A DNA stretch of 63,885 bases, filler included. It is 6 parts of 6 records of this genome, joined end to end, with 100 filler letters (N's around TTAATTAATTAA, not from the genome) between each part and the next. Parts side by side here need not be neighbours in the genome. Positions count along the whole stretch, not along the records: positions 32,847 to 42,263 come from DRR723986_10268; 5 more parts are not named here. The stretch is one strand, 5' to 3'. How positions within the stretch are numbered: the stretch's first letter is position 1; every line of letters begins with the position of its first letter. A program made the position numbers and the translations under genes. The notes below the pieces were generated by a model. The model made no database searches, was not told the origin of the DNA, and worked only from the letters and a program-made list of their open reading frames with translations. This document shows, piece by piece, positions 5,140-57,722 of the stretch.

Positions 5140-6321
5140 TTACAGCTTGACGCTTACCTTCGCTGCGGCGCGCAGGGCTTTCTCTGTTGCCTCGCCGGTA
5201 GTCTCCGCCCGGGCCAGGGCAACACCCATCCGGCGCCGGCCGGCGACCTCGGGCTTGCCGAACAGGCGCAGGTCCGTATCCGGTTCCGCCAGTGCCTCTT
5301 CCAGCGAGCCATAGCGGGTCTGCTGCGATTCCCCTTCCACCAGGATGACCGCTGAAGCCGAGGGTCCACGCTGGCGAATGACCGGAATTGGCAGACCGAG
5401 AATCGCCCGGGCATGGAGGTCGAACTCGGACAGGTCCTGGGAGATCAGGGTCACCATGCCGGTGTCGTGAGGTCGCGGGGAAACCTCGCTGAAGTAGACC
5501 TGGTCGCCCTTGATGAAAAACTCGACACCGAACAGCCCGCGCCCGCCAAGAGCCCCGGTGACCTGCGCCGCAATGTCCTGGCAACTCGCCAGCGCGGCCG
5601 CGGACATGGGTTGCGGCTGCCAGGACTCGCGGTAGTCGCCGTCCTCCTGGCGGTGGCCGATCGGTTCACAGAAACTGGTGCCACTCTCGTGGCGCACGGT
5701 CAGCAGGGTGATTTCGTAATCGAAGTCGACAAAGCCTTCGACGATTACCGTCCCGGCCCCGGCGCGCCCGCCCTCCTGGGCGTAGTTCCAGGCCCGGTCC
5801 GCATCCTCTGCGCGTAGCACTGTGCTCTGGCCCTTGCCCGAGGAACTCATGATCGGTTTCACCACGCAGGGGATGCCGACGTCGCGCAGGGCCGCGTCGA
5901 AGGCCTCGCGGCTGTCAGCGAAGCGGTAGGGGGAGGTGGGTACGCCAAGCTCCTCAGCGGCCAGACGGCGGATGCCCTCGCGATTCATGGTCAGCCGGGC
6001 CGCGCGGGCTGTGGGCACCACGGTGAAGCCCTCGGCCTCCAGTTCGACGAGGGTGTCGGTGGCGATTGCCTCGATTTCCGGAACCACGTAGTGCGGTTGC
6101 TCCAGTTCGATGACCCGGCGCAACTCGTCGCCGTCGAGCATGGAAAAGGTGTGGCTGCGATCCGCCACCTGCATGGCGGGTGCATGGGCGTAGCGATCGC
6201 AGGCGATTACCTCGACCCCGAGGCGCTGCAGGGCGATAACCACTTCCTTGCCAAGTTCACCCGAGCCGCAAAGCAGAACTCGGGTGGCAGTTTCGCTGAA
6301 TGGGGTGCCGATGGTGGTCAT
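5140..6321 (-). CDS. purT: Formate-dependent phosphoribosylglycinamide formyltransferase
   Basis: [45 protein letters not shown]. Confidence 0.97.
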
Positions 6322-6421
6322 GCGCGCGTTCCTTACAGTTGTTGCCCTTGGTGTCTTTACCTTTCGGCCCAGCCGGGCTGGTCATCTTCAAATGGTATCG
6401 TCTGCATTCGCTTCGCCGTTC

Positions 6422-9265
<2,844 letters not shown>

Positions 9266-19548: not shown

Positions 19549-19648
19549 NNNNNNNNNNNNNNNNNNNNNNNNNNNNNNNNNNNNNNNNNNNNTTAATTAA
19601 TTAANNNNNNNNNNNNNNNNNNNNNNNNNNNNNNNNNNNNNNNNNNNN
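19549..19648. other. Artificial contig spacer
   Basis: 44 N + TTAATTAATTAA (stops in all six frames) + 44 N. Confidence 0.99.
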
Positions 19649-32746: not shown

Positions 32747-32846
32747 NNNNNNNNNNNNNNNNNNNNNNNNNNNNNNNNNNNNNNNNNNNNTTAATTAATT
32801 AANNNNNNNNNNNNNNNNNNNNNNNNNNNNNNNNNNNNNNNNNNNN
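32747..32846. other. Artificial contig spacer
   Basis: N-run with TTAATTAATTAA. Confidence 0.99.
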
Positions 32847-32891: not shown

Positions 32892-33290
32892 TTAGCCGAT
32901 CATTACGGTCCCAGCGGCGATTATCTGGCCGACCGGCAAATCGCTTGGATCGTTGCAGGTCTCGACGATGTCCGTAGCGCGCGCGGCGTCCTTGCCGCCA
33001 ATCTTGACTGTGACGCTACCCATAAAGACCGTGCCTTTATCCGCCGGTGGACTCTGGAAAGAAGTACCGGGCGGCATCGCGATATGCGCAGGCACATTCG
33101 ACGCCGTACTGTCCTTTACTGCGGCGGCCATACCAGCGATTTTTACCGTGGGCTCCGTGGCTCCATCGATTTGTCCGCTGAATGGATGTGGCAGCGGCGT
33201 AGGGACCGGGCCACCGGGCGTAGGGACCATCACGATGTGTGTGTCCACGGCGATAACGCTGGCGCCTTCAGTTGCAGCTGGCAATCCCAT
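32892..33290 (-). CDS. PAAR-like spike-tip protein
   Basis: MGLPAA...DTH...VPTPLPHPF...TVKIAGMAAA...TVKIGGKDAAR...TCND...TVMIG; His/Cys candidate metal ligands. Confidence 0.9.
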   Translation of the reverse strand: MGLPAATEGASVIAVDTHIVMVPTPGGPVPTPLPHPFSGQIDGATEPTVKIAGMAAAVKDSTASNVPAHIAMPPGTSFQSPPADKGTVFMGSVTVKIGGKDAARATDIVETCNDPSDLPVGQIIAAGTVMIG

Positions 33291-33529
33291 GTTCTTTTCC
33301 TCGCTTCAGCTTTGGATGTTAACATCGCTGACTCCGATGTTAAACACTTAAACAGGTTTCTGGCTTGTGGTATAAGCTATTTGTGGCAGGCTATGTGCCT
33401 TGCGGCTGATGCCACAGCGACAAACAAAACCCTCAAAAAAAGCAGACCGTTTTTTAGGGATCTTCCCAGGTCGGGCTGCGCTGCCTTTCCGCGCCAAATG
33501 TAGTTTAAGCTCCAGCAATGAACAGTTGT

Positions 33530-34189
33530 TTAATTTATTTCCACCTGCGGTGCCGCCACGGTGACTTTACTCATGCCCGACAGCGAGATTTCGTTAGCCT
33601 CAAAAGCAAGGTTGCCTTGTGTGCTGACGAGAATATCACCATCTTTTTTGAGTGTAATTTTTGTTCCTCCGGCAGCCATTTCTGCGCTACCACCACCGCC
33701 GGCCTCCAGCGCTAATTTGATATCACCTACGGAGAGGGATATTTTTTCTTCAATACATTCGAGCAGAACATCACCCGGTAGTTTTAAACGCCAGGCGGGT
33801 TCGTTACCATCAATTGTAAGGTCCAGCTTGGGTTCGTCTTCGCCAGGCGGCAGCTGTAATGTTAACTGTCCGGCATCGTGTTTTGGGGCGTTTAAGTCGG
33901 GCGTGTACAGGCGGCCAACTACAACCGGTGCGTGATAATTACCTTCGGCAAAAACCACTACTACCAGATCTTCGACGGCTGGAATTGCAGCAAAACCGAG
34001 TACTCCGCTGGCCACGGGAACACGCGGCAATACCAGACCAGAATCGCGCAGTTCAACACTTACGGCGTAGTCGCCCTGATTTTCGGACGGACCAAAGGTG
34101 TCGACGACTTGCGCAATTGCAGCCACAGGATGTTTAGCACTTTCGTGGCGCGCAATTCGCGCAATGCTTTCAAATAATGATGAGCTCAT
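33530..34189 (-). CDS. Phage baseplate spike (gpV / gp5 OB-fold plus beta-helix)
   Basis: RVPVA...GFAAIPAVEDLVVVVFAEGNYHAPVVVGRLY OB-fold signature; short beta-strand repeats to a C-terminal VEIN; GGAG RBS before ATG 34189. Confidence 0.88.
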   Translation of the reverse strand: MSSSLFESIARIARHESAKHPVAAIAQVVDTFGPSENQGDYAVSVELRDSGLVLPRVPVASGVLGFAAIPAVEDLVVVVFAEGNYHAPVVVGRLYTPDLNAPKHDAGQLTLQLPPGEDEPKLDLTIDGNEPAWRLKLPGDVLLECIEEKISLSVGDIKLALEAGGGGSAEMAAGGTKITLKKDGDILVSTQGNLAFEANEISLSGMSKVTVAAPQVEIN

Positions 34190-34202
34190 GTTACATCTCC
34201 CA

Positions 34203-35225
34203 TCATAAGAAACCTCCAAGTCCTGCCCCAGCCAGAGCGAGCAATCCATCCAGTGCGCTAGCAGCATCGGCGTTTACACCAATAAAACTGGTGTGCGCGC
34301 CTTCGGCCGCCATGGAGTGACGTACGTTTGTTAACAGCCAGGGACCACCTTTCAAACCATTTGGCAGGTCCTGAACTTCAACTATCATTCCGGGGCGCAG
34401 GTCCGGCTGCAACCAGGTTGTAGCATGTACTCTACCGCCACGTGCTGCACTTGCAAGGCTCGCCGCTTCACCGGCCGCCTTGGCATCGGAAGCCGTACGA
34501 ATCTCGGGAGCCGCCTGCCAAATTGCGTCTGCCCCGGGCGCGCTAGCATCGGCCGGCAAATAGCTGAAACTGGGCCGCAAAACATCCGGTGCGTCGGCTG
34601 AACCCGCAGTGCCATTACCGATTGTAAAACGTGCGGCGGCGGGTATGGCGACGGAATCTTCCTGATATGTTAAAATTTCGCGTCCGTGTTTAAGTGCCAG
34701 GTCAGGAGTTCCGCCGGGCCAGGCGCGAATATCAAGTTTGCCATCCGCATTTAACAACGCCAGGCAGCCACTTAAACGCGCCAGGTGGCTGATGTGTTCG
34801 GCTACGGTATGCCGTTGATCCGCCACGTAAACCGCCAGTGCCAGTTTCGCATCGTTGGTGGCCAGGTCAATGCCGGCAGTATCGGCCAGGGCCTTGATTA
34901 CTTTGCCGGAGTCCTGCCCCTCAAATGTTTTAGCAAGACGCACTGCTGCCAGGCGTGCGGAATGATCTGCGATCACGAGTGAACTCCCCTCCAGAGACTT
35001 GCGCAGGAGCCGAATGGAACCATTTAGCGTTGCCTGGCTGCCTTCCCCGCTATCCAGTATTACACTGGCCTCGTCGTCGACTGCCGCCGAAATTGCAACT
35101 TCAATTGGGAAGTTAACGCGGGCAGACCCGACGGAAGGCAATATGCCAATGCTCACGTGCACGTCAATTACGTGTTGATCGTAAGACTTGCCTGCTAAAC
35201 GGATATCGATTGAAGGGATTAACAT
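34203..35225 (-). CDS. Baseplate hub protein (gpD/gp27-like)
   Basis: Immediately upstream of spike; PDLRPGMIVEVQDL...GPWLLTNVRHSM...HTSF C-terminal hub motif. Confidence 0.72.
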   Translation of the reverse strand: MLIPSIDIRLAGKSYDQHVIDVHVSIGILPSVGSARVNFPIEVAISAAVDDEASVILDSGEGSQATLNGSIRLLRKSLEGSSLVIADHSARLAAVRLAKTFEGQDSGKVIKALADTAGIDLATNDAKLALAVYVADQRHTVAEHISHLARLSGCLALLNADGKLDIRAWPGGTPDLALKHGREILTYQEDSVAIPAAARFTIGNGTAGSADAPDVLRPSFSYLPADASAPGADAIWQAAPEIRTASDAKAAGEAASLASAARGGRVHATTWLQPDLRPGMIVEVQDLPNGLKGGPWLLTNVRHSMAAEGAHTSFIGVNADAASALDGLLALAGAGLGGFL

Positions 35226-35302
35226 TAATTGTTTTCCGTGCTCTCAGCTATGTAAACAAATGTCAGGCGCAATGCACAAACTGTCTTATTGAGTTTCGAT
35301 TG

Positions 35303-35965
35303 TTAAGAGAAGGCGTCTCCGAGTTCGCTTAGGGCCGACTGGAATCCTCCGCCGGCTTCCTTGACTTTGTCAACGGGCGCGCTGAGTGGGTCGAACAGAC
35401 CGTTAAGGTCCAGGCCGTCAAGACTTAACAAGCCGGACAGCTGATCGATTACACCGAGGGCGTCGTCTACCGCACCGGCCACTTCACCTGCCAGGTCCTC
35501 CAAATCGCCAAGGATGTCGGTGTCGAACCCGAGGTCCCCCAGGCCAAAATCATCCAGTCCACCAAACGCATCGACAGTAGCCGGAGGCGGTAAAGGTGGG
35601 CTTTCGGCCAGCGCCAGTTGAAAACGAAATACGCCGGGGCGCCCGGCCATTTCCTCGCCACGAAAATGTGTGATTACGACTCGCTGTATGTCAAGTGCGC
35701 TCGTAATATCGGCCGAAAATGTTAACTCTTCACCTTTGGCGGCCGCTTCCTGTAAACTGCCCAGTTGATCGCGGGCATCTTCGCCGTGAAAAAAACCTTC
35801 CAGGCGCACGCGATGGCTGCGACGGGCACTGCGCTGCTGGACTTCACCTTCCAGACCCGGGACGGCAATTGAGACAAAGCCGGCATCAATGTTGTGCTCA
35901 ATTACCTGGCCATAGTCGAGCGAGATATCACCAAGCAGGGGTATGGGGCGCGATTCTTCAGCCAT
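35303..35965 (-). CDS. Tube-initiator-like protein (gpU / Mu DNA-circularisation N-terminal-like) with acidic tail
   Basis: VPGLEGEVQQRSARRSHRVRLEG...RVVITHFRGEE...FRFQLALAE tube-fold pattern; position upstream of hub. Confidence 0.6.
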   Translation of the reverse strand: MAEESRPIPLLGDISLDYGQVIEHNIDAGFVSIAVPGLEGEVQQRSARRSHRVRLEGFFHGEDARDQLGSLQEAAAKGEELTFSADITSALDIQRVVITHFRGEEMAGRPGVFRFQLALAESPPLPPPATVDAFGGLDDFGLGDLGFDTDILGDLEDLAGEVAGAVDDALGVIDQLSGLLSLDGLDLNGLFDPLSAPVDKVKEAGGGFQSALSELGDAFS

Positions 35966-37806
35966 CAGTCAAGACCTCGTAGATCAGCTTCTTCGTTGAG
36001 TAGGCGTGCCAATGAGTCGGCCATGGTCAGCGACAATGTTTGACTTTGTGCCAGGCCGCCCATGTTTGGGCTTGTGCGTTTTTCGTCAATACCATTCCCA
36101 GGAACGCGCCCCAGGGAAATCTCATGAGTCTGCAGTTGCCTGGCTCCAGTATTCTCGGCGGCTGCTCCCGAAAATCCAGGCGAAACAGCACGAAGAGCAT
36201 TGGCCGGCGTGAGCGGTTCTTGACCGCCGCCTGCACCAATAATTCGCGGCGATGTAGGCTTGGCCGCTGCGCCGTATTCTGACGCATTCACGTTTGTGTT
36301 AAGCTCTGATGCCGGTGAGGGTGCGGCTGCACCGGAGTTCGCAATGTTACCGGCCGGCTGACCGGTATCATGCCGCAGATTAACATCTTGGACTCTTGAT
36401 TGGACTTTTGTAACGGCCGGAGCCGGGCCAGTTTTGAATCGCGTTTTTGCGGCGCTGTTTGTTAGCTGCGGGATCCGTGTTTCGTTATCCAGCGCAGTTA
36501 ACTTCCAATTTTTTGGGTTCGCATGTGGTGCGCTGGAGTCAGGCCGGGCTGCCGGCTGACTCATAGATGTCTGTGGCACCGATTTTGGTGTTGTCAATTC
36601 CGTTTTGGATGCCGCTGCCGGTGCTACTCCAATACTCATGATCCGCGCTTTAAGCCGCGGTTGTGAAGCGGCAGAGTCTTGCAGTTTTGCATTTGGCGCC
36701 GGCCCGGCGGCACGTTGAGCGGCAGCAATATTGCGAGCGGCCGGACGCATCTGTCCAGGCCTAATTGTTGCCGCAGTTGAGTGTTCAAGCGAACCCTCCG
36801 CTTGAAGTTTTGCACTGCGCTGTTTGGCTGCGGAACTCGCCGAGTCAGGCGTTTCGCTGTTTAACATTGCTGCTTCGGCCTGCGTGAAAGGACGGTTTGC
36901 ATGCGGCCGCGCTGACGACTCGGCGAGCGGGTAGTCTGCAAAGAACTCATCGTCGGCAGCTGGTACCGAGCGTGCATCAAACCTGGCTTCTGCGGTGTTG
37001 TCTGCGTCAACAGATGCGTCCATGGATTGACCGACCGAACTGTCTACAGAGTTATTAACAGCATTATTAACAGAATCTCGCCTGGTTATGGACTCCGCGG
37101 CTGAGCCACGTCCATCACCAAATGTGGCAACTTCCTGAGACCGGACATTTGCGAAGTCATCAGCGAAGGCTACATCCTCAAAATCGCGACCCAAAGCGCC
37201 GCTATGAAGCTGGGGACGTTTGCCGCTGTCCAGACGTTGCAATAGATTCAGAGCGAGCTGCTTGCGAATGTTAAACACCGGAACAGCGCTTGTTTGCTCT
37301 GCAGCTGAATTGTCTGCAGCAGTTCCGGCGCCAGGTGCAAACTTGATCTTTGTCCACCCGTCGTCCGCCTGCTCAGGTTTTAACTGCAGCGCCATCTGAT
37401 CGATGCGGTCGGCCGGGGCGGCGTCAATCTGCTGCATGCTCCAGCCCGTAGCATGTGCCACGTGCATCAATGCATTCAGGTATCCGGGTTTGATGTTGTC
37501 GGCACCGGCCAGGCTGAGTGCCAGGGATTCAATTGCGTGTTGTTCAGGCTCGCTAAACTTGCGGGTTCCAGCTTCAACTGTTGCGGCGTTCAGCACCATG
37601 CGAGCCACAGCATCCGCCGGATCCAGAGATCCGGCGGCCTGTGAAACAACTGTAAAACGTTCACCAAAGTGCAGTGCGCGGATGATCGGACCGTCCTCCC
37701 CGCCAACCTGAATGGCGGTGGAAGCCATAACCGGGTGCATACCCAGTTTGACGTCGCCTGCGCTGATGCAGCCGGCACTAAAGTCGATCCTTACGTCCGC
37801 GCTCAC
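35965..37806 (-). CDS. Putative tail-assembly-chaperone / tape-measure-like protein
   Basis: Directly follows tube gene; helical N-terminus with VAHATGWSMQQI motif, long Ala/Pro/Ser-rich low-complexity middle, helical C-terminus LARLLNEEADLRGLD; abuts or overlaps neighbours on both sides. Confidence 0.5.
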   Translation of the reverse strand: MSADVRIDFSAGCISAGDVKLGMHPVMASTAIQVGGEDGPIIRALHFGERFTVVSQAAGSLDPADAVARMVLNAATVEAGTRKFSEPEQHAIESLALSLAGADNIKPGYLNALMHVAHATGWSMQQIDAAPADRIDQMALQLKPEQADDGWTKIKFAPGAGTAADNSAAEQTSAVPVFNIRKQLALNLLQRLDSGKRPQLHSGALGRDFEDVAFADDFANVRSQEVATFGDGRGSAAESITRRDSVNNAVNNSVDSSVGQSMDASVDADNTAEARFDARSVPAADDEFFADYPLAESSARPHANRPFTQAEAAMLNSETPDSASSAAKQRSAKLQAEGSLEHSTAATIRPGQMRPAARNIAAAQRAAGPAPNAKLQDSAASQPRLKARIMSIGVAPAAASKTELTTPKSVPQTSMSQPAARPDSSAPHANPKNWKLTALDNETRIPQLTNSAAKTRFKTGPAPAVTKVQSRVQDVNLRHDTGQPAGNIANSGAAAPSPASELNTNVNASEYGAAAKPTSPRIIGAGGGQEPLTPANALRAVSPGFSGAAAENTGARQLQTHEISLGRVPGNGIDEKRTSPNMGGLAQSQTLSLTMADSLARLLNEEADLRGLD

Positions 37807-38190
37807 TTAGGCTGCCTCCTCACGTACGCGCACAGCGGTGAAACTGTAAACGGCCTCACCGTGACCATTGGCCCCCATGGCAAAACTCTTCTCCTGCAGG
37901 AAGCAGTCATCAAAGGTCACCGTCATCTGGGTGTCACCTTGTTTAAGAGTCGCCGTCACCTGGAAGGCGTCATCGCCGGTTAAAGCGTTAAATGCGGTGC
38001 TGGAAGAAACGACTTGTAAACGCGCTTCTACAAACTGCGGCCCACTGGCCATGCCAATGCGTTCGGCGCTGCCCAGGGCATAGAGGTTGCGGCGGTCCTG
38101 ATGATGGCGGTATTCCACAGAGGTCACGCCTTCAACCGGTTCGCCGTTTAACAAAACGCTGCTTTCATTAGCTGCAAATATTGTCGGCAT
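37807..38190 (-). CDS. Putative tail tube protein
   Basis: 127-aa all-beta protein directly after sheath; YALGSAERIG...VTFDDC...AVYSFTAVRVRE; AGGAG RBS. Confidence 0.72.
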   Translation of the reverse strand: MPTIFAANESSVLLNGEPVEGVTSVEYRHHQDRRNLYALGSAERIGMASGPQFVEARLQVVSSSTAFNALTGDDAFQVTATLKQGDTQMTVTFDDCFLQEKSFAMGANGHGEAVYSFTAVRVREEAA

Positions 38191-38201
38191 CGGTTAACTC
38201 C

Positions 38202-39911
38202 TTAGTTCTTTACTCTGATGGTTGCGTAAATGTAATCGATGGCTCGAACAGGACGCACGGCAATGTCAATACGAACAATACCCTGCGCAAAGTCCTGCTG
38301 CGTGGAATAGACGTCAACGTGGAACGCTGGATCTGAGCCGTCGGTGGAAGGCACCAGAGCGTTGTCGCGCTGCATACGCGTAAAGGTTGCAACAATTTGT
38401 TGTTTAAGTGCCGTACGCGCGTCATCAGTGTTCAGGCGGCCGATAAAGTTTTCGGAAATTGCCTTGGTTTCGCGAATGGCCTGGTCTGCCACACGCGTCA
38501 CTGAAATCTGATCACCACTGGTATCCAAACCACGCAGAACCACTATTCCGCGGCCAATCCGATTTTGAACCACCAGCAAATTAGTACTGGCGCCAAGGAG
38601 TCGGTTCAGCTGACTCTCGCGATACGTGGCTGCCTGCATGCCATGCAGCGGCACCGACTTAAACGTCGGTGAAAACTGCGGACGCATGCGGCCAATCATG
38701 CCGGCGACGGCACCCGCGGCACCGGCCGGGGAAACTAAAACAAAGCGGCGGTTGCGCACCGTAGCGGCGTGATCCTTGATTTTGGAAAGATCACCCTGCT
38801 CGTCGGCAGTTACCGAACCAAAGGCAATACGTGGCGCACCATTATCGGCCATTGTGACCGCATGTGCCACGAGCGACTGGTGAATTGTGCGAACATCGCT
38901 GTTCGATCGCTTGGGCTCAATTGCTGCCAGGCACAAGTCAATGCGTGTGTCGTCTGACAGTAATTCGATGGCCGTTTGATAATTGGCAACCGAAGGTGAG
39001 GTGCCGCCCGCAAAGTCTGTTAAACCGCCAGTCGCAGCCGGCAGGCTGTCAGCCAGTGAACTCAGTACCGTAACGCGGATAAAGCGGCTGCGCGCCTCCA
39101 AAACGTAGGGCAAATAGTTGTCGGCATCGGGGTTCATTACCAGATCGGTAAACTCTTCGCGCAGTCCACCCTGAAATACTTTCAAATCAATGGTGCTATC
39201 GACTTCGTTAACTGAGATTTCGACTGAGAGCCCTTCGGGGCTGATGCCGTCGGCTGGACGCATATTAAAGATGGTATCTGCCGGGGTGTCCTTGCGTGCA
39301 ACGTCTATAGTCGTCACAACATCGCTGAACACATAGGTGGTTGCCGGTGCGTTGGTGGGCTCGGGCAGCCAGCTTTCGGCCGAAGGATCAATGGCAACGA
39401 CGTAACTTGACTTGCGATTGATTGTCTCAAAGATGTCATCGGGAGCACCCGCACGATCCTGCAGATCGGTGAATGTTTCTACGAGTGCACCGTTGAGGTA
39501 CAGGCGCATGTTAACGCGAACGGTATCACCATTTGCATTCAGAATCGATGAAATATCAGCTTTGAGATCATTGCCCCAGCTTCCATTCGAACGGGTTCGC
39601 AGTGTAATTGCGTTAACATCTGCAGCATTTACCAATGTAGTGGACGCCGGTCCACCACCTGCCACAGGTGAAATCACAGCTTCGCTTGCGCCATTGGCAA
39701 GTGCATGCACGACTTCGGGCATACTTACTTCCGTACCCGGCCCCAGAATCTGGCGCAGTTCACTGATTTTGGAAACTGTCACAAGACCGGATTTAACCGG
39801 TGGACGATCGACAATGCCTACAGCACCGACAATTCCGGACGGCGCCGGTAAGGGCGGTAATACGTCAAAACGCGCTTCTACGCGCACGCCGGGCACGACA
39901 AGTGTGGCCAT
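38202..39911 (-). CDS. Contractile phage tail sheath protein
   Basis: N-terminal VVPGVRVE, GSWGNDL, C-terminal ISVTRVAD...FIGRLN...VRIDIAVRPVRAIDYIYATI; GGAGAAGG RBS favours ATG 39911. Confidence 0.92.
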   Translation of the reverse strand: MATLVVPGVRVEARFDVLPPLPAPSGIVGAVGIVDRPPVKSGLVTVSKISELRQILGPGTEVSMPEVVHALANGASEAVISPVAGGGPASTTLVNAADVNAITLRTRSNGSWGNDLKADISSILNANGDTVRVNMRLYLNGALVETFTDLQDRAGAPDDIFETINRKSSYVVAIDPSAESWLPEPTNAPATTYVFSDVVTTIDVARKDTPADTIFNMRPADGISPEGLSVEISVNEVDSTIDLKVFQGGLREEFTDLVMNPDADNYLPYVLEARSRFIRVTVLSSLADSLPAATGGLTDFAGGTSPSVANYQTAIELLSDDTRIDLCLAAIEPKRSNSDVRTIHQSLVAHAVTMADNGAPRIAFGSVTADEQGDLSKIKDHAATVRNRRFVLVSPAGAAGAVAGMIGRMRPQFSPTFKSVPLHGMQAATYRESQLNRLLGASTNLLVVQNRIGRGIVVLRGLDTSGDQISVTRVADQAIRETKAISENFIGRLNTDDARTALKQQIVATFTRMQRDNALVPSTDGSDPAFHVDVYSTQQDFAQGIVRIDIAVRPVRAIDYIYATIRVKN

Positions 39912-40988
39912 TACCTTCTCCATGTTAAAATGTGGTTAAACCTGCAATTGGCAGGAACCGGCTCTCAAGTGCACACAATAGCCTATGCAGAAAGATGCGG
40001 TGAAGCATTTCCAGCACTACTGTGCAGACATAAGAATATTGACGCCGTGGTTTAACATCAAAGCCAATTGGGCACGCCCCAGCGCGTTTCGAATACGCCA
40101 GTTACGTGCATACAGCGGCTATGGTGCTCCGGTTGACCTTGACCGGCCAGACACCTGTTCCGTGCTACTAATTAGGTTGTCAGTTTTATATTAACGTGTT
40201 AAACGCCAGAATTCACAGCTGGGTGGCCGCAAAGCAGCAGAGGACGAACTTCGGTACCTTGTTCGACCATGCGATGGTTTAACGCAGGCCCAATGTACAA
40301 CAACACTTTTGTGAATGCAAGCAAAAATGTTGCGAAGTTTTTTTTCGTGTTACGCTGTAGAAAACGTGTAACTTTTGGAATGTATGCCGGATTACTCTGG
40401 GGCTATATCAAGCTAGTATCTATGCGACATGCGGGCAATTCCGGCGTGTTGGTGACCTATTGTTCCCAGAGCCCAACAGACCTTTTGATCATGTCTGGTA
40501 TGCCCAAAATGACCTAGCAGTTGCCAACAATTCGGGTTCGCATGTTTTGTAGTTAACAGTCTACACACGCCCTAAATTCGCATAGCTAAAAATGACTATT
40601 GCTTGGCCAGATGTAGCTAGAAAAATCACTTTTTGCAGGATCGAAACACACGCGGTTTTTTACGTATGTTTAAGAAGTAAAGCCAAAATTCGCCCCTATA
40701 ATCTACCAGCCAGGACTGATACCAGTTGCAAAGTTCGCGATCCCGGCGAACGTAGCATAGGGGTTAACATTTTTGACTAATAGCTATCGTTCTGTGGCCG
40801 GCCTCCAGTACACGCAAATTTGGAGCCTTTAATTGTCCACTTCGGCCCATAAAGTTTTTTTTGGACCTCTTATTTTGTGATAGCATATTGCGGAGACATA
40901 CGGAGGCAAACACCCTCGGCTTCCCTATGTAAATACATTGAGTTTGTCCCGGCTCAATTTGATTTGGAAAAAGTGAAAGAACAGTCGT

Positions 40989-42263
40989 ATGCGAAATACC
41001 GTGATGGGACGGGAGTTGGCACGCCAGAAACTCTATTCTGTTGAGCAGCTAGTTGAGCAATCCTGGATTCTGTCGAGAAAAAACGATCCACGCGCAGTGG
41101 AATACGCGCGCCAGGCAGTCGCCCTGGAAAAAGTACAGGGACGAACCCTGGGTATTCACCGCGCCTTGGCCTGTATAGCTCAGGAGCATGTGATCAGCCG
41201 CAATATCTCTGCGGCACGCAAACTTCTAACCGAAGCAGAACTGCAATCGATTAATGCAAATGACTGGGAGTGCCAGGCCTGGATACATCGGCAGTTAAAT
41301 ATGCTCGCTCACGAAGAACTAGATTGGCAGCAGTCATTCTACCACATTCGCCGAGCAATTGACCTCTACGCAGAGAATGGAAAATTTGACGCGGTTGGCC
41401 ATCGAGCGCTGGGAAGGCACTACGCCGAGGCAGGCCTCTTTGCAGAGTCGTTGGAGGTTTTGCACCAGGTACTTGATGCCACGGAGGGCTATGAAAACAG
41501 CATTGCGCGAATCAGCGCCATGGGCAATATTGCTACCGTGTGGTTCGAAGCCGGCAACATTGAGAAGTTTACTGAGGTCAATGAAGCGACTCTGGCTTTA
41601 GCAATCTCAATCAATGACTACTCATCCCAGGCGCTGTGCCTCCAGAGACGCGGCTGTGCCGGCATGATGGGATTAATCGAATCTGACGCCCTGGCCGACC
41701 TTGAAGCCGCTATAGAAATTCACGAAAGCAACGGTGAGACACAGTTCCTGATTCAGGGCCAGTATAACTATGCCGCAGCGCTGTTGCAGCAGGGACAGCT
41801 GGACCGCGGTCTAAAACTTCTGCACCAAACCACAGCATTGGCCAAGGAATTTAAAAGACCCAAGATTGTTATCGGCTGCCACATTACGAAGAGTGAGTTG
41901 TTACTTCGTCAGCAGCGCTTTGAGGAAGCGTACGCTCTGCTGAAAGAAGCATTATTGCTTGCGGAACAGGGTGATATGAAAGGGCGGCAAGCCGGAATCC
42001 ATCAAAAATCGGCAAAAGTCTGTGGACATCTGAAGCTGGCCAACGAAGCGCTGGATCACACGCAAAAATTCCTGGAGTTACAGCAGGCAACCGCAGGCAT
42101 ACACATACAACGAAAGATTACCGCGATTGAGAACCGCTATGAAATGCAGCAAAGTCACATCAAACAGGAAGTCTTGCAGCTGCAGAATCGCCAATTGAGT
42201 AGCCAGGTTGAACAGCTTAATCAAGAGTTAGCCAAAATGGCCAATGTCCTTGCCCAAAGAAAC
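40989..42263 (+). CDS. Tetratricopeptide-repeat protein with C-terminal coiled coil (3' truncated; probable regulator)
   Basis: TPR-like helices (ISAMGNIATVW, YNYAAALL), then IENRYEM...LQNRQLSSQVEQLNQELAKMANVLAQRN coiled coil. Confidence 0.75.
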
Positions 42264-42363
42264 NNNNNNNNNNNNNNNNNNNNNNNNNNNNNNNNNNNNN
42301 NNNNNNNTTAATTAATTAANNNNNNNNNNNNNNNNNNNNNNNNNNNNNNNNNNNNNNNNNNNN
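42264..42363. other. Artificial contig spacer
   Basis: N-run with TTAATTAATTAA. Confidence 0.99.
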
Positions 42364-50478: not shown

Positions 50479-50578
50479 NNNNNNNNNNNNNNNNNNNNNN
50501 NNNNNNNNNNNNNNNNNNNNNNTTAATTAATTAANNNNNNNNNNNNNNNNNNNNNNNNNNNNNNNNNNNNNNNNNNNN
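50479..50578. other. Artificial contig spacer
   Basis: N-run with TTAATTAATTAA. Confidence 0.99.
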
Positions 50579-57622: not shown

Positions 57623-57722
57623 NNNNNNNNNNNNNNNNNNNNNNNNNNNNNNNNNNNNNNNNNNNNTTAATTAATTAANNNNNNNNNNNNNNNNNNNNNN
57701 NNNNNNNNNNNNNNNNNNNNNN
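57623..57722. other. Artificial contig spacer
   Basis: N-run with TTAATTAATTAA. Confidence 0.99.

Follow-up and report, generated by a model that had tools for sequence, protein, structure and literature searches.

What kind of contractile machine is encoded by a run of seven tail-like genes that has no head genes beside it and a contig break directly behind it? We addressed this question for a window of 63,885 bases (the whole stretch of DNA analysed), made up of six contigs joined by N spacers, in which one 9.4-kb contig (32847-42263, DRR723986_10268) carries seven co-oriented open reading frames (ORFs) on the minus strand at 32892-39911. The region very probably comprises the seven genes nearest the promoter of a headless contractile injection system (CIS) whose intact form has ~17 genes. 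The initial annotation had described the layout of the seven ORFs, their coordinates and a contig break 45 bp behind the last gene, all of which were confirmed in the sequence. In the order of transcription, the genes are as follows.

38202-39911, minus strand: tail sheath, 569 amino acids (aa); PF17482 5.5e-9, phrog_279 1.9e-27.
37807-38190, minus strand: tail tube, 127 aa; tail-tube fold by AlphaFold and Foldseek, no Pfam family.
35965-37806, minus strand: candidate tail-assembly-chaperone-like or tape-like protein, 613 aa; position and weak matches.
35303-35965, minus strand: putative baseplate-core protein, 220 aa; position of Mu gp43, sub-threshold family matches.
34203-35225, minus strand: baseplate hub, 340 aa, of the gp44, gpD or VgrG N-half type; PF22255, NF033848.
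33530-34189, minus strand: spike, 219 aa, of the gp5, gpV or VgrG C-half type; PF04717 3.9e-6, above cut-off.
32892-33290, minus strand: PAAR spike-tip protein, 132 aa; PF05488 5.3e-7, above cut-off.

The identities first proposed for the sheath, tube, hub, spike and PAAR proteins held, on the basis of family and profile matches and of the tube fold found by Foldseek. Alignment with relatives placed the ATG of the sheath gene at 39911, in agreement with the original call; GGAGAAGG precedes this start, and an alternative in-frame ATG at 39923 would give a protein of 573 aa. PF04984 was also present in several sheath homologues, and the sheath family profile recovered no solved sheath from the PDB, even at E ≤ 10. 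For the 127-aa tube, Pfam returned nothing but noise at E ≤ 0.1, PF06841 (Phage_T4_gp19) was unmatched, and the family profile found no PDB chain at E ≤ 1. Its AlphaFold (AF2) model, built from 29 homologues with a pLDDT of 85, matched the tail tubes of phage 812, diffocin, phiCD508, HFTV1, PVC and Mu in a Foldseek search against the PDB (E 1.4e-7 to ~1e-4, TM 0.55-0.72). The fold is that of a generic tail tube, and PVC/AFP tubes matched it no better than phage tubes.

The hub matched PF22255 (Gp44-like_2nd) at 5.4e-4, below cut-off, and NF033848 (VgrG_rel) at 3.1e-9. Its profile found the VgrG-like chain 9gtr_q of the Streptomyces coelicolor system in the PDB at 3.9e-17, followed by a Salmonella VgrG from an extracellular contractile injection system (eCIS) at 2.9e-5 and MuSo2 gp44 at 3.2e-4. 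The spike gene had been assigned a start at 34267; comparison with relatives points to the ATG at 34189 instead, and the coordinates above follow this correction. The Phage_base_V domain (PF04717) of the spike was accompanied by profile matches in the PDB to Afp8 (1.4e-9), Pvc8 (2.8e-8), All3320, 7aef and many VgrG proteins of type VI secretion systems (T6SS), with P2 gpV reaching only 0.016. In the solved eCIS and T6SS structures that matched, the counterparts of hub and spike form one chain of ~530-670 aa, whose N-terminal part aligns with the hub and whose C-terminal part aligns with the spike.

The PAAR protein was 77-80% identical to those of the two closest relatives, L001 and L002. A PAAR homologue does not by itself mark the cluster: among 80 metagenome loci picked by PAAR similarity, the gp25-like gene accompanied them in 19 of 51 loci with room for it, and the sheath in 6 of 18. 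Three of these metagenome loci (L183, L187 and L174) carried hub, spike, PAAR (58-61% identical), gp25-like and J-like genes (27-48% identity). The sheath was not directly upstream in any of the three, and L174 had a tape-measure-like match upstream of the hub. Further PAAR homologues were accompanied by none of the cluster genes.

Two of the seven proteins could be assigned less firmly. The 613-aa protein, which had been called chaperone- or tape-like, consists of a conserved N-domain (~1-195), a disordered middle that is rich in Pro, Ser and Ala and varies in length, and, at the C-terminus, a conserved peptide (...LLNEEADLRGLD). It matched no family, and a Pfam search of 25 family members at E ≤ 1 gave scattered single matches; the ESM Atlas held no usable match for the N-domain, and Foldseek with its model found nothing in the PDB at E ≤ 0.001. 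The N-domain is weakly chaperone-like. The 220-aa protein, previously termed a tube initiator, matched DUF6046 at 3.4e-5 (below cut-off) and the 'baseplate hub' family phrog_184 at 8.6e-4, and it corresponded to the protein in the same position of an IMG/VR locus (L092) with an hhalign probability of 98.7. It showed no significant match to Mu gp43, and its family profile found no PDB chain or only coiled-coil noise. Profile comparison of this family, and of a 306-aa family encoded further downstream in relatives, with the tube family was insignificant, as a test for a tube-like initiator or terminator. A full-text literature search for 'DUF6046' found no mention. Both earlier names are plausible, supported by position and weak matches.

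Does the operon end where the contig does? Only 45 bp separate the stop of the PAAR gene (32892) from the contig end; the last base of the adjoining N run is 32846. A sheath search yielded 447 homologues at E ≤ 0.001 among 8000 candidates scored, with 61-88% identity among the 120 listed, and a scan of one genome per species gave 80 genome loci, of which many are truncated at contig ends. Sheath identity across these 80 loci was 45-88%, or 54-88% apart from three divergent long-sheath loci (45-51%). The sheaths of L001 and L002 are 88% identical to that of the window, and the complete gene set is carried by L002 and L090 (sheath 88% identical). In L001, L002 and the majority of the other loci, the gene directly after PAAR is gp25-like; a J-like wedge gene and eight further conserved genes come next, so that the full operon in relatives has ~17 genes in 27-28 kb, of which the window holds the first seven. 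The ten genes after PAAR in L002 are listed here in order.

First, 153 aa: gp25-like protein; phrog_975 1.2e-15, PF04965 only 8.9e-4.
Second, 575 aa: J-like wedge protein; phrog_6 6.9e-40.
Third, 468 aa: putative baseplate protein; phrog_1160, weak.
Fourth, 166 aa: phrog_5417.
Fifth, 366 aa: no family match.
Sixth, 549 aa: C-terminal helix-hairpin-helix domain (HHH_5).
Seventh, 306 aa: no family match.
Eighth, 546 aa: no family match.
Ninth, 1090 aa: tape-measure PHROGs 1.7e-14.
Tenth, 2251 aa: no family match.

The initial annotation had proposed a minimal, wedge-less system or, alternatively, one whose remaining genes lie beyond the contig break. Because relatives continue past PAAR with ten genes, gp25-like and J-like among them, 'minimal' and 'wedge-less' fail, and the pattern in relatives is that of the second proposal. 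Syntrophus buswellii and Mycolicibacterium senegalense show this order again with proteins of similar size, and from the third gene onwards the size ranges in relatives are 420-470 aa for the baseplate protein, then ~166, 320-366, 430-550, ~300, 525-546, ~1090 and 1926-2251 aa. With the L002 proteins as tblastn queries, the tube was found in 80 of the 80 loci, the 220-aa protein and the hub each in 73, the spike in 71, PAAR in 63, the gp25-like and J-like proteins each in 67, and the next three in 64, 63 and 63. The 575-aa family matched Bas63 gp023 (7e-16), 9euf ORF62 (3e-13), diffocin CD1371 (1e-9) and phiCD508 gp65 in profile searches against the PDB. A match to the 546-aa gene turned up in 35 of 40 genomes, adjoining the sheath locus where coordinates were comparable; the five misses were three Cellulomonas genomes and two divergent long-sheath genomes. 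The 306-aa gene stood next to it in all 30 loci fetched around the 546-aa gene; its family profile matched no PDB chain or only coiled-coil noise, and a Pfam search of 31 members at E ≤ 1 gave scattered single matches only. The divergent sub-lineage comprises L078, L079 and L080 (Gammaproteobacteria, Desulfobacterales and Haliangium), which have a longer sheath and match over ~2.3 kb at 45-51%; in L079 and L080, both of those tested, the 546-aa gene was unmatched.

The two last genes provide leads to a ruler and a payload. The length of the 1090-aa protein is stable across phyla (1090, 1086, 1095 and 1093 aa), and tblastn missed its mycobacterial copy; constant length with diverging sequence is as expected of a tape measure. 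The terminal giant of M. senegalense matched RHS_repeat at 3.1e-9, above cut-off, and its sources call it 'RHS repeat protein / YD-shell domain-containing protein'; an Atlas lead to the RHS nature of the giant showed weak agreement (0.83). The Syntrophus orthologue and that of the closest relative can be aligned with this giant, but RHS lies below Pfam detection in both; an RHS shell serving as toxin container is for this reason put forward as a hypothesis, and the terminal giant as a candidate payload container. The full cluster occurs in rapidly growing mycobacteria, as seen in L065 and L085 (M. senegalense), with cluster members also in M. conceptionense, M. farcinogenes and M. neworleansense. 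Ten cluster proteins of Mycolicibacterium were looked up; almost all are annotated 'hypothetical protein', and the last gene is annotated as RHS repeat protein.

The next question is whether the operon is the tail half of a prophage. As originally noted, the contig itself is devoid of integrase, lysis and T6SS genes; this is a weak argument, because the contig has only one other gene, itself cut. The neighbourhoods of relatives were also compared. In 62 loci with at least 6 kb of upstream sequence, no gene family recurred in more than 8. The commonest upstream genes encode regulators with TPR, Trans_reg_C and BTAD domains (8 loci), sigma-54 enhancer-binding proteins (8) and LuxR-type response regulators (4), and the remaining ones are housekeeping genes; the genes upstream of the L002 cluster recur in just 1-4 of the 80 loci. 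Terminase_6N, Phage_capsid (HK97-type) and Phage_portal were unmatched in three of five carrier genomes (G002, G003 and G005), the last of which is the complete M. senegalense genome. In G004, head families mark a prophage ~830 kb from the cluster, and a lone Terminase_6N match lies ~2.5 Mb away; in G001, a terminase match lies on another contig. Neither these neighbourhoods nor the five genomes showed capsid, portal or terminase genes next to the tail genes, as an intact prophage would.

Phage collections were consistent with this picture. Among 50,697 phage records, the best sheath match was 29% identical over 25% of the sheath, and no close relative was present. IMG/VR held one sheath relative (40% identical), the 10.6-kb contig L092, in which the sheath is followed by a tube, a 122-aa gene, a 686-aa gene, the 220-aa homologue and ORFs of hub, spike, gp25 and J size. 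This contig begins at the sheath, so that the upstream region in which head genes would lie is outside it. Profile matches of the N-terminal motif and extreme C-terminus of the 613-aa protein to the 122-aa and 686-aa proteins were faint (E 0.018 and 0.14) and serve as leads only. Pfam scanning of the locus in the closest relative turned up no lysis family, though it included no dedicated search for lysis genes. As far as its genes tell, the system is headless and not a prophage, as first proposed.

In the window, the sheath gene is preceded by a long leader and a divergent gene.

39912-40988, minus strand: non-coding leader, 1077 bp; plus-strand ORFs of 62-82 aa only, no Rfam match.
40989-42263, plus strand: TPR (MalT-like TPR) protein, truncated where the contig stops; PF17874 2e-8, sub-threshold, plus TPR families.

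The ~1.07 kb previously described as free of a convincing gene thus measured 1077 bp. Two stretches of the leader resemble the upstream regions of L001 and L002: ~40141-40297 is 71-73% identical, and 39924-39964, the conserved 41 nt before the sheath start, is 88-90% identical. They may represent a shared promoter or leader element. Rfam gave no match at E ≤ 0.1 on the contig, a sigma-54 promoter scan of the leader found one weak site (8 of 11 positions, at 40828), and a sigma-70 and terminator scan performed no better than on shuffled sequences. The divergently transcribed TPR protein is a possible regulator; tblastx found a 28%-identical stretch upstream of the L001 cluster, and the protein is not homologous to the TPR-BTAD regulators upstream of other loci.

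Where the system occurs was examined with a FastTree phylogeny of 81 sheaths, in which 13 named phyla are represented. Actinomycetota contribute 24 rows, Pseudomonadota and Acidobacteriota 13 each, Chloroflexota 9 and Thermodesulfobacteriota 6, with further rows from other phyla. Labels of one phylum cluster on the tree, yet 26 changes are needed where the minimum is 12, a pattern consistent with vertical descent inside families together with inter-phylum transfer. Cultured carriers include Cellulomonas, Syntrophus, Variovorax, Humibacillus, Paracoccus and Mycolicibacterium. The sheath of the window grouped with those of L001 and L002, then with Ignavibacteriota, Kapaibacteriota and Rhodothermota (support 95). 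This placement agrees with the host group suggested at the outset, the Fibrobacterota-Chlorobiota-Bacteroidota (FCB) group, an agreement that falls short of proof. Upstream of the L001 cluster, at 5710-6858, lies a protein with a C-terminal sorting domain of the type IX secretion system (Por_Secre_tail, 8.8e-9), which fits a Bacteroidota or FCB origin better than the title 'Hyphomicrobiales' of that record.

The missing downstream genes were not found on the other five contigs of the window. The operon is cut at the following spacer.

32747-32846, no strand: contig spacer, N runs around TTAATTAATTAA.

Spacers with the same TTAATTAATTAA linker lie at 19549-19648, 42264-42363, 50479-50578 and 57623-57722. 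Extension of the contig by an exact 34-nt match in metagenome contigs found nothing, and the metagenome scan with PAAR recovered neither a relative above 74% identity nor a contig of the same strain. The G+C content was ~0.63-0.65 in parts of the first and fourth contigs versus 0.49-0.57 in the contig with the cluster; because it differs so markedly between contigs, the bin may be mixed.

How would such a particle work? The identity and fold class of sheath, tube, hub, spike and PAAR, the conservation of the gene set and the lack of head genes are shown by the data above, and from there we infer an order of assembly, a payload, a target and a site of action outside the cell or from within. Hub, spike and PAAR would form a central spike complex, around which the wedge proteins would build the baseplate. 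The tube would polymerise on the hub, aided by the chaperone-like protein and the ruler, and the sheath would then polymerise around the tube. Upon a trigger, the sheath would contract and drive the PAAR-tipped tube into the target membrane, and the terminal giant, which has RHS/YD repeats in Mycolicibacterium, is the candidate container of the payload.

Besides shaping microbial warfare, contractile injection systems are being mined for programmable devices that deliver proteins. Surveys in the literature define eCIS through markers of the Afp type. Under the detection rules of Geller et al. 2021 (PMC8213781), an operon must have no fewer than 10 core genes and, in addition, one of Afp12, 13, 14 or 16; hence, a system like this one would probably have been missed there. 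The chromosomal sheaths listed in Evseev et al. 2022 have other lengths, and the system described in Zhang et al. 2012 is of the PVC type only. A description of this gene set was not found in the full-text literature, a search whose scope lay outside subscription journals and the eCIStem and dbeCIS operon tables; a prior description is possible. With 447 sheath homologues, 80 genome loci and 13 named phyla, the system is abundant. Should it form a working particle, its design would be structurally new, with neither the cap family nor an ATPase and with an RHS partner outside T6SS, and it would be within experimental reach.

The best reading of these data is a distinct, widespread contractile injection lineage outside the described classes. 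A more specific version, which we hold tentatively and at slightly less than even chances, is an unclassified, phylum-spanning CIS lineage with Mu-like gene order, a split VgrG, neither DUF4255 cap nor ATPase, host-regulator placement and about seven accessory proteins ending in an RHS/YD-shell giant, which would work in monoderms and diderms and possibly deliver an RHS-encapsulated toxin without a T6SS. Comparison with known systems bears on both versions and on their rivals.

The first comparison is with Afp/PVC-type eCIS, including the Streptomyces CIS, AlgoCIS and the thylakoid-anchored CIS of Anabaena. Like these, the present system is a headless chromosomal operon with a phage-type sheath (Phage_sheath_1/1C), a tube and PAAR, to which relatives add gp25-like and J-like baseplate proteins and, near the 3' end, a tape-measure-like gene and a large gene related to toxins or their containers. 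The hub and spike profiles likewise find their nearest relatives of solved structure among eCIS-type and T6SS VgrG proteins (9gtr, 9rce, Afp8, Pvc8, All3320 and 7aef). It could accordingly be a divergent canonical eCIS whose markers have diverged too far for Pfam, which we consider unlikely. PF14065 (DUF4255, the Afp16 cap) was unmatched in three of the five carrier genomes and matched at unrelated loci in the other two, and none of the 31 members of the 306-aa family matched it at E ≤ 1; a structural equivalent of the cap may nevertheless be present. No AAA family was found at E ≤ 0.01 in the 18 proteins scanned at the closest relative's locus, 13 of which are cluster genes. The tube was unmatched by PF06841, neither sheath nor tube profiles found a solved relative by sequence, and the hub (340 aa) and spike (219 aa) are encoded by separate genes, in contrast to the single fused Afp8 and related chains. 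The sheath is the first gene here, in a Mu-like order. The initial annotation was thus right that canonical eCIS markers are lacking. DUF4255 (Pvc16_N) proteins were seen far from the cluster in Variovorax brevis and Syntrophus buswellii (L081 and L083 in G003, L082 in G004), and two kinds of tail-like system may coexist in one genome in these species.

The tail module of phage Mu, along with P2-like phages and R-type tailocins, offers the second comparison. In the Mu annotation, sheath and tube are followed by chaperone, tape measure, gp43, hub, V, wedge, baseplate, wedge and fibre, with hub and spike separate. L002 and L090 have the same order from the sheath to the gp25-like, J-like and I-like genes, the roles of the two genes after the tube being weakly supported. 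The J-like protein is related to phage and diffocin baseplate proteins, with homology to the triplex/J-like proteins of diffocin (CD1371) and phiCD508 (gp65), and L092 shares the order, with separate 122-aa and 686-aa genes after the tube. The best structural matches of the tube are likewise those of diffocin, phiCD508 and phage 812 (TM 0.69-0.72), although these alignments have 11-14% identity, those systems come from Firmicutes and a sharing of accessory genes with them is not in evidence. Such resemblances would suit an R-type tailocin or a decayed Mu/P2-like prophage tail module confined to single lineages, an explanation that we regard as still less probable than a diverged eCIS. The ORFs are intact and strongly conserved across 13 named phyla, host regulators rather than head, neck and terminator genes lie upstream, and close phage relatives are lacking. 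In profile comparison with Mu, the sheath, gp41 and gp43 were insignificant, and the hub reached E 3e-4; in separate searches, PHROG sheath and wedge families matched. PAAR and seven further conserved genes, including the giant RHS-related protein, have been added to the Mu-like module, and we know of no tailocin with such a set. A lysis cassette was not recognised, though it was not systematically looked for.

The third comparison is with T6SS carrying Rhs effectors, in which PAAR, VgrG-like parts and an RHS-type protein are typical cargo arrangements and the sheath consists of two proteins, TssB and TssC. The present system shares the VgrG-like OB-fold and beta-helix spike, the PAAR tip and an RHS/YD-repeat giant in the operon, but a cell-anchored T6SS-like apparatus is highly improbable, since the sheath is one phage-type protein of ~570 aa and the closest relative's cluster yielded neither a ClpV-like or other AAA family nor, in a crude hydropathy scan, any membrane protein or transmembrane segment. 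Carriers include monoderm phyla, and the system occurs in Actinomycetota and Chloroflexota. Judged by its gene content, the distinct lineage proposed here mixes a Mu-like tail with features of eCIS and adds an accessory set of its own.

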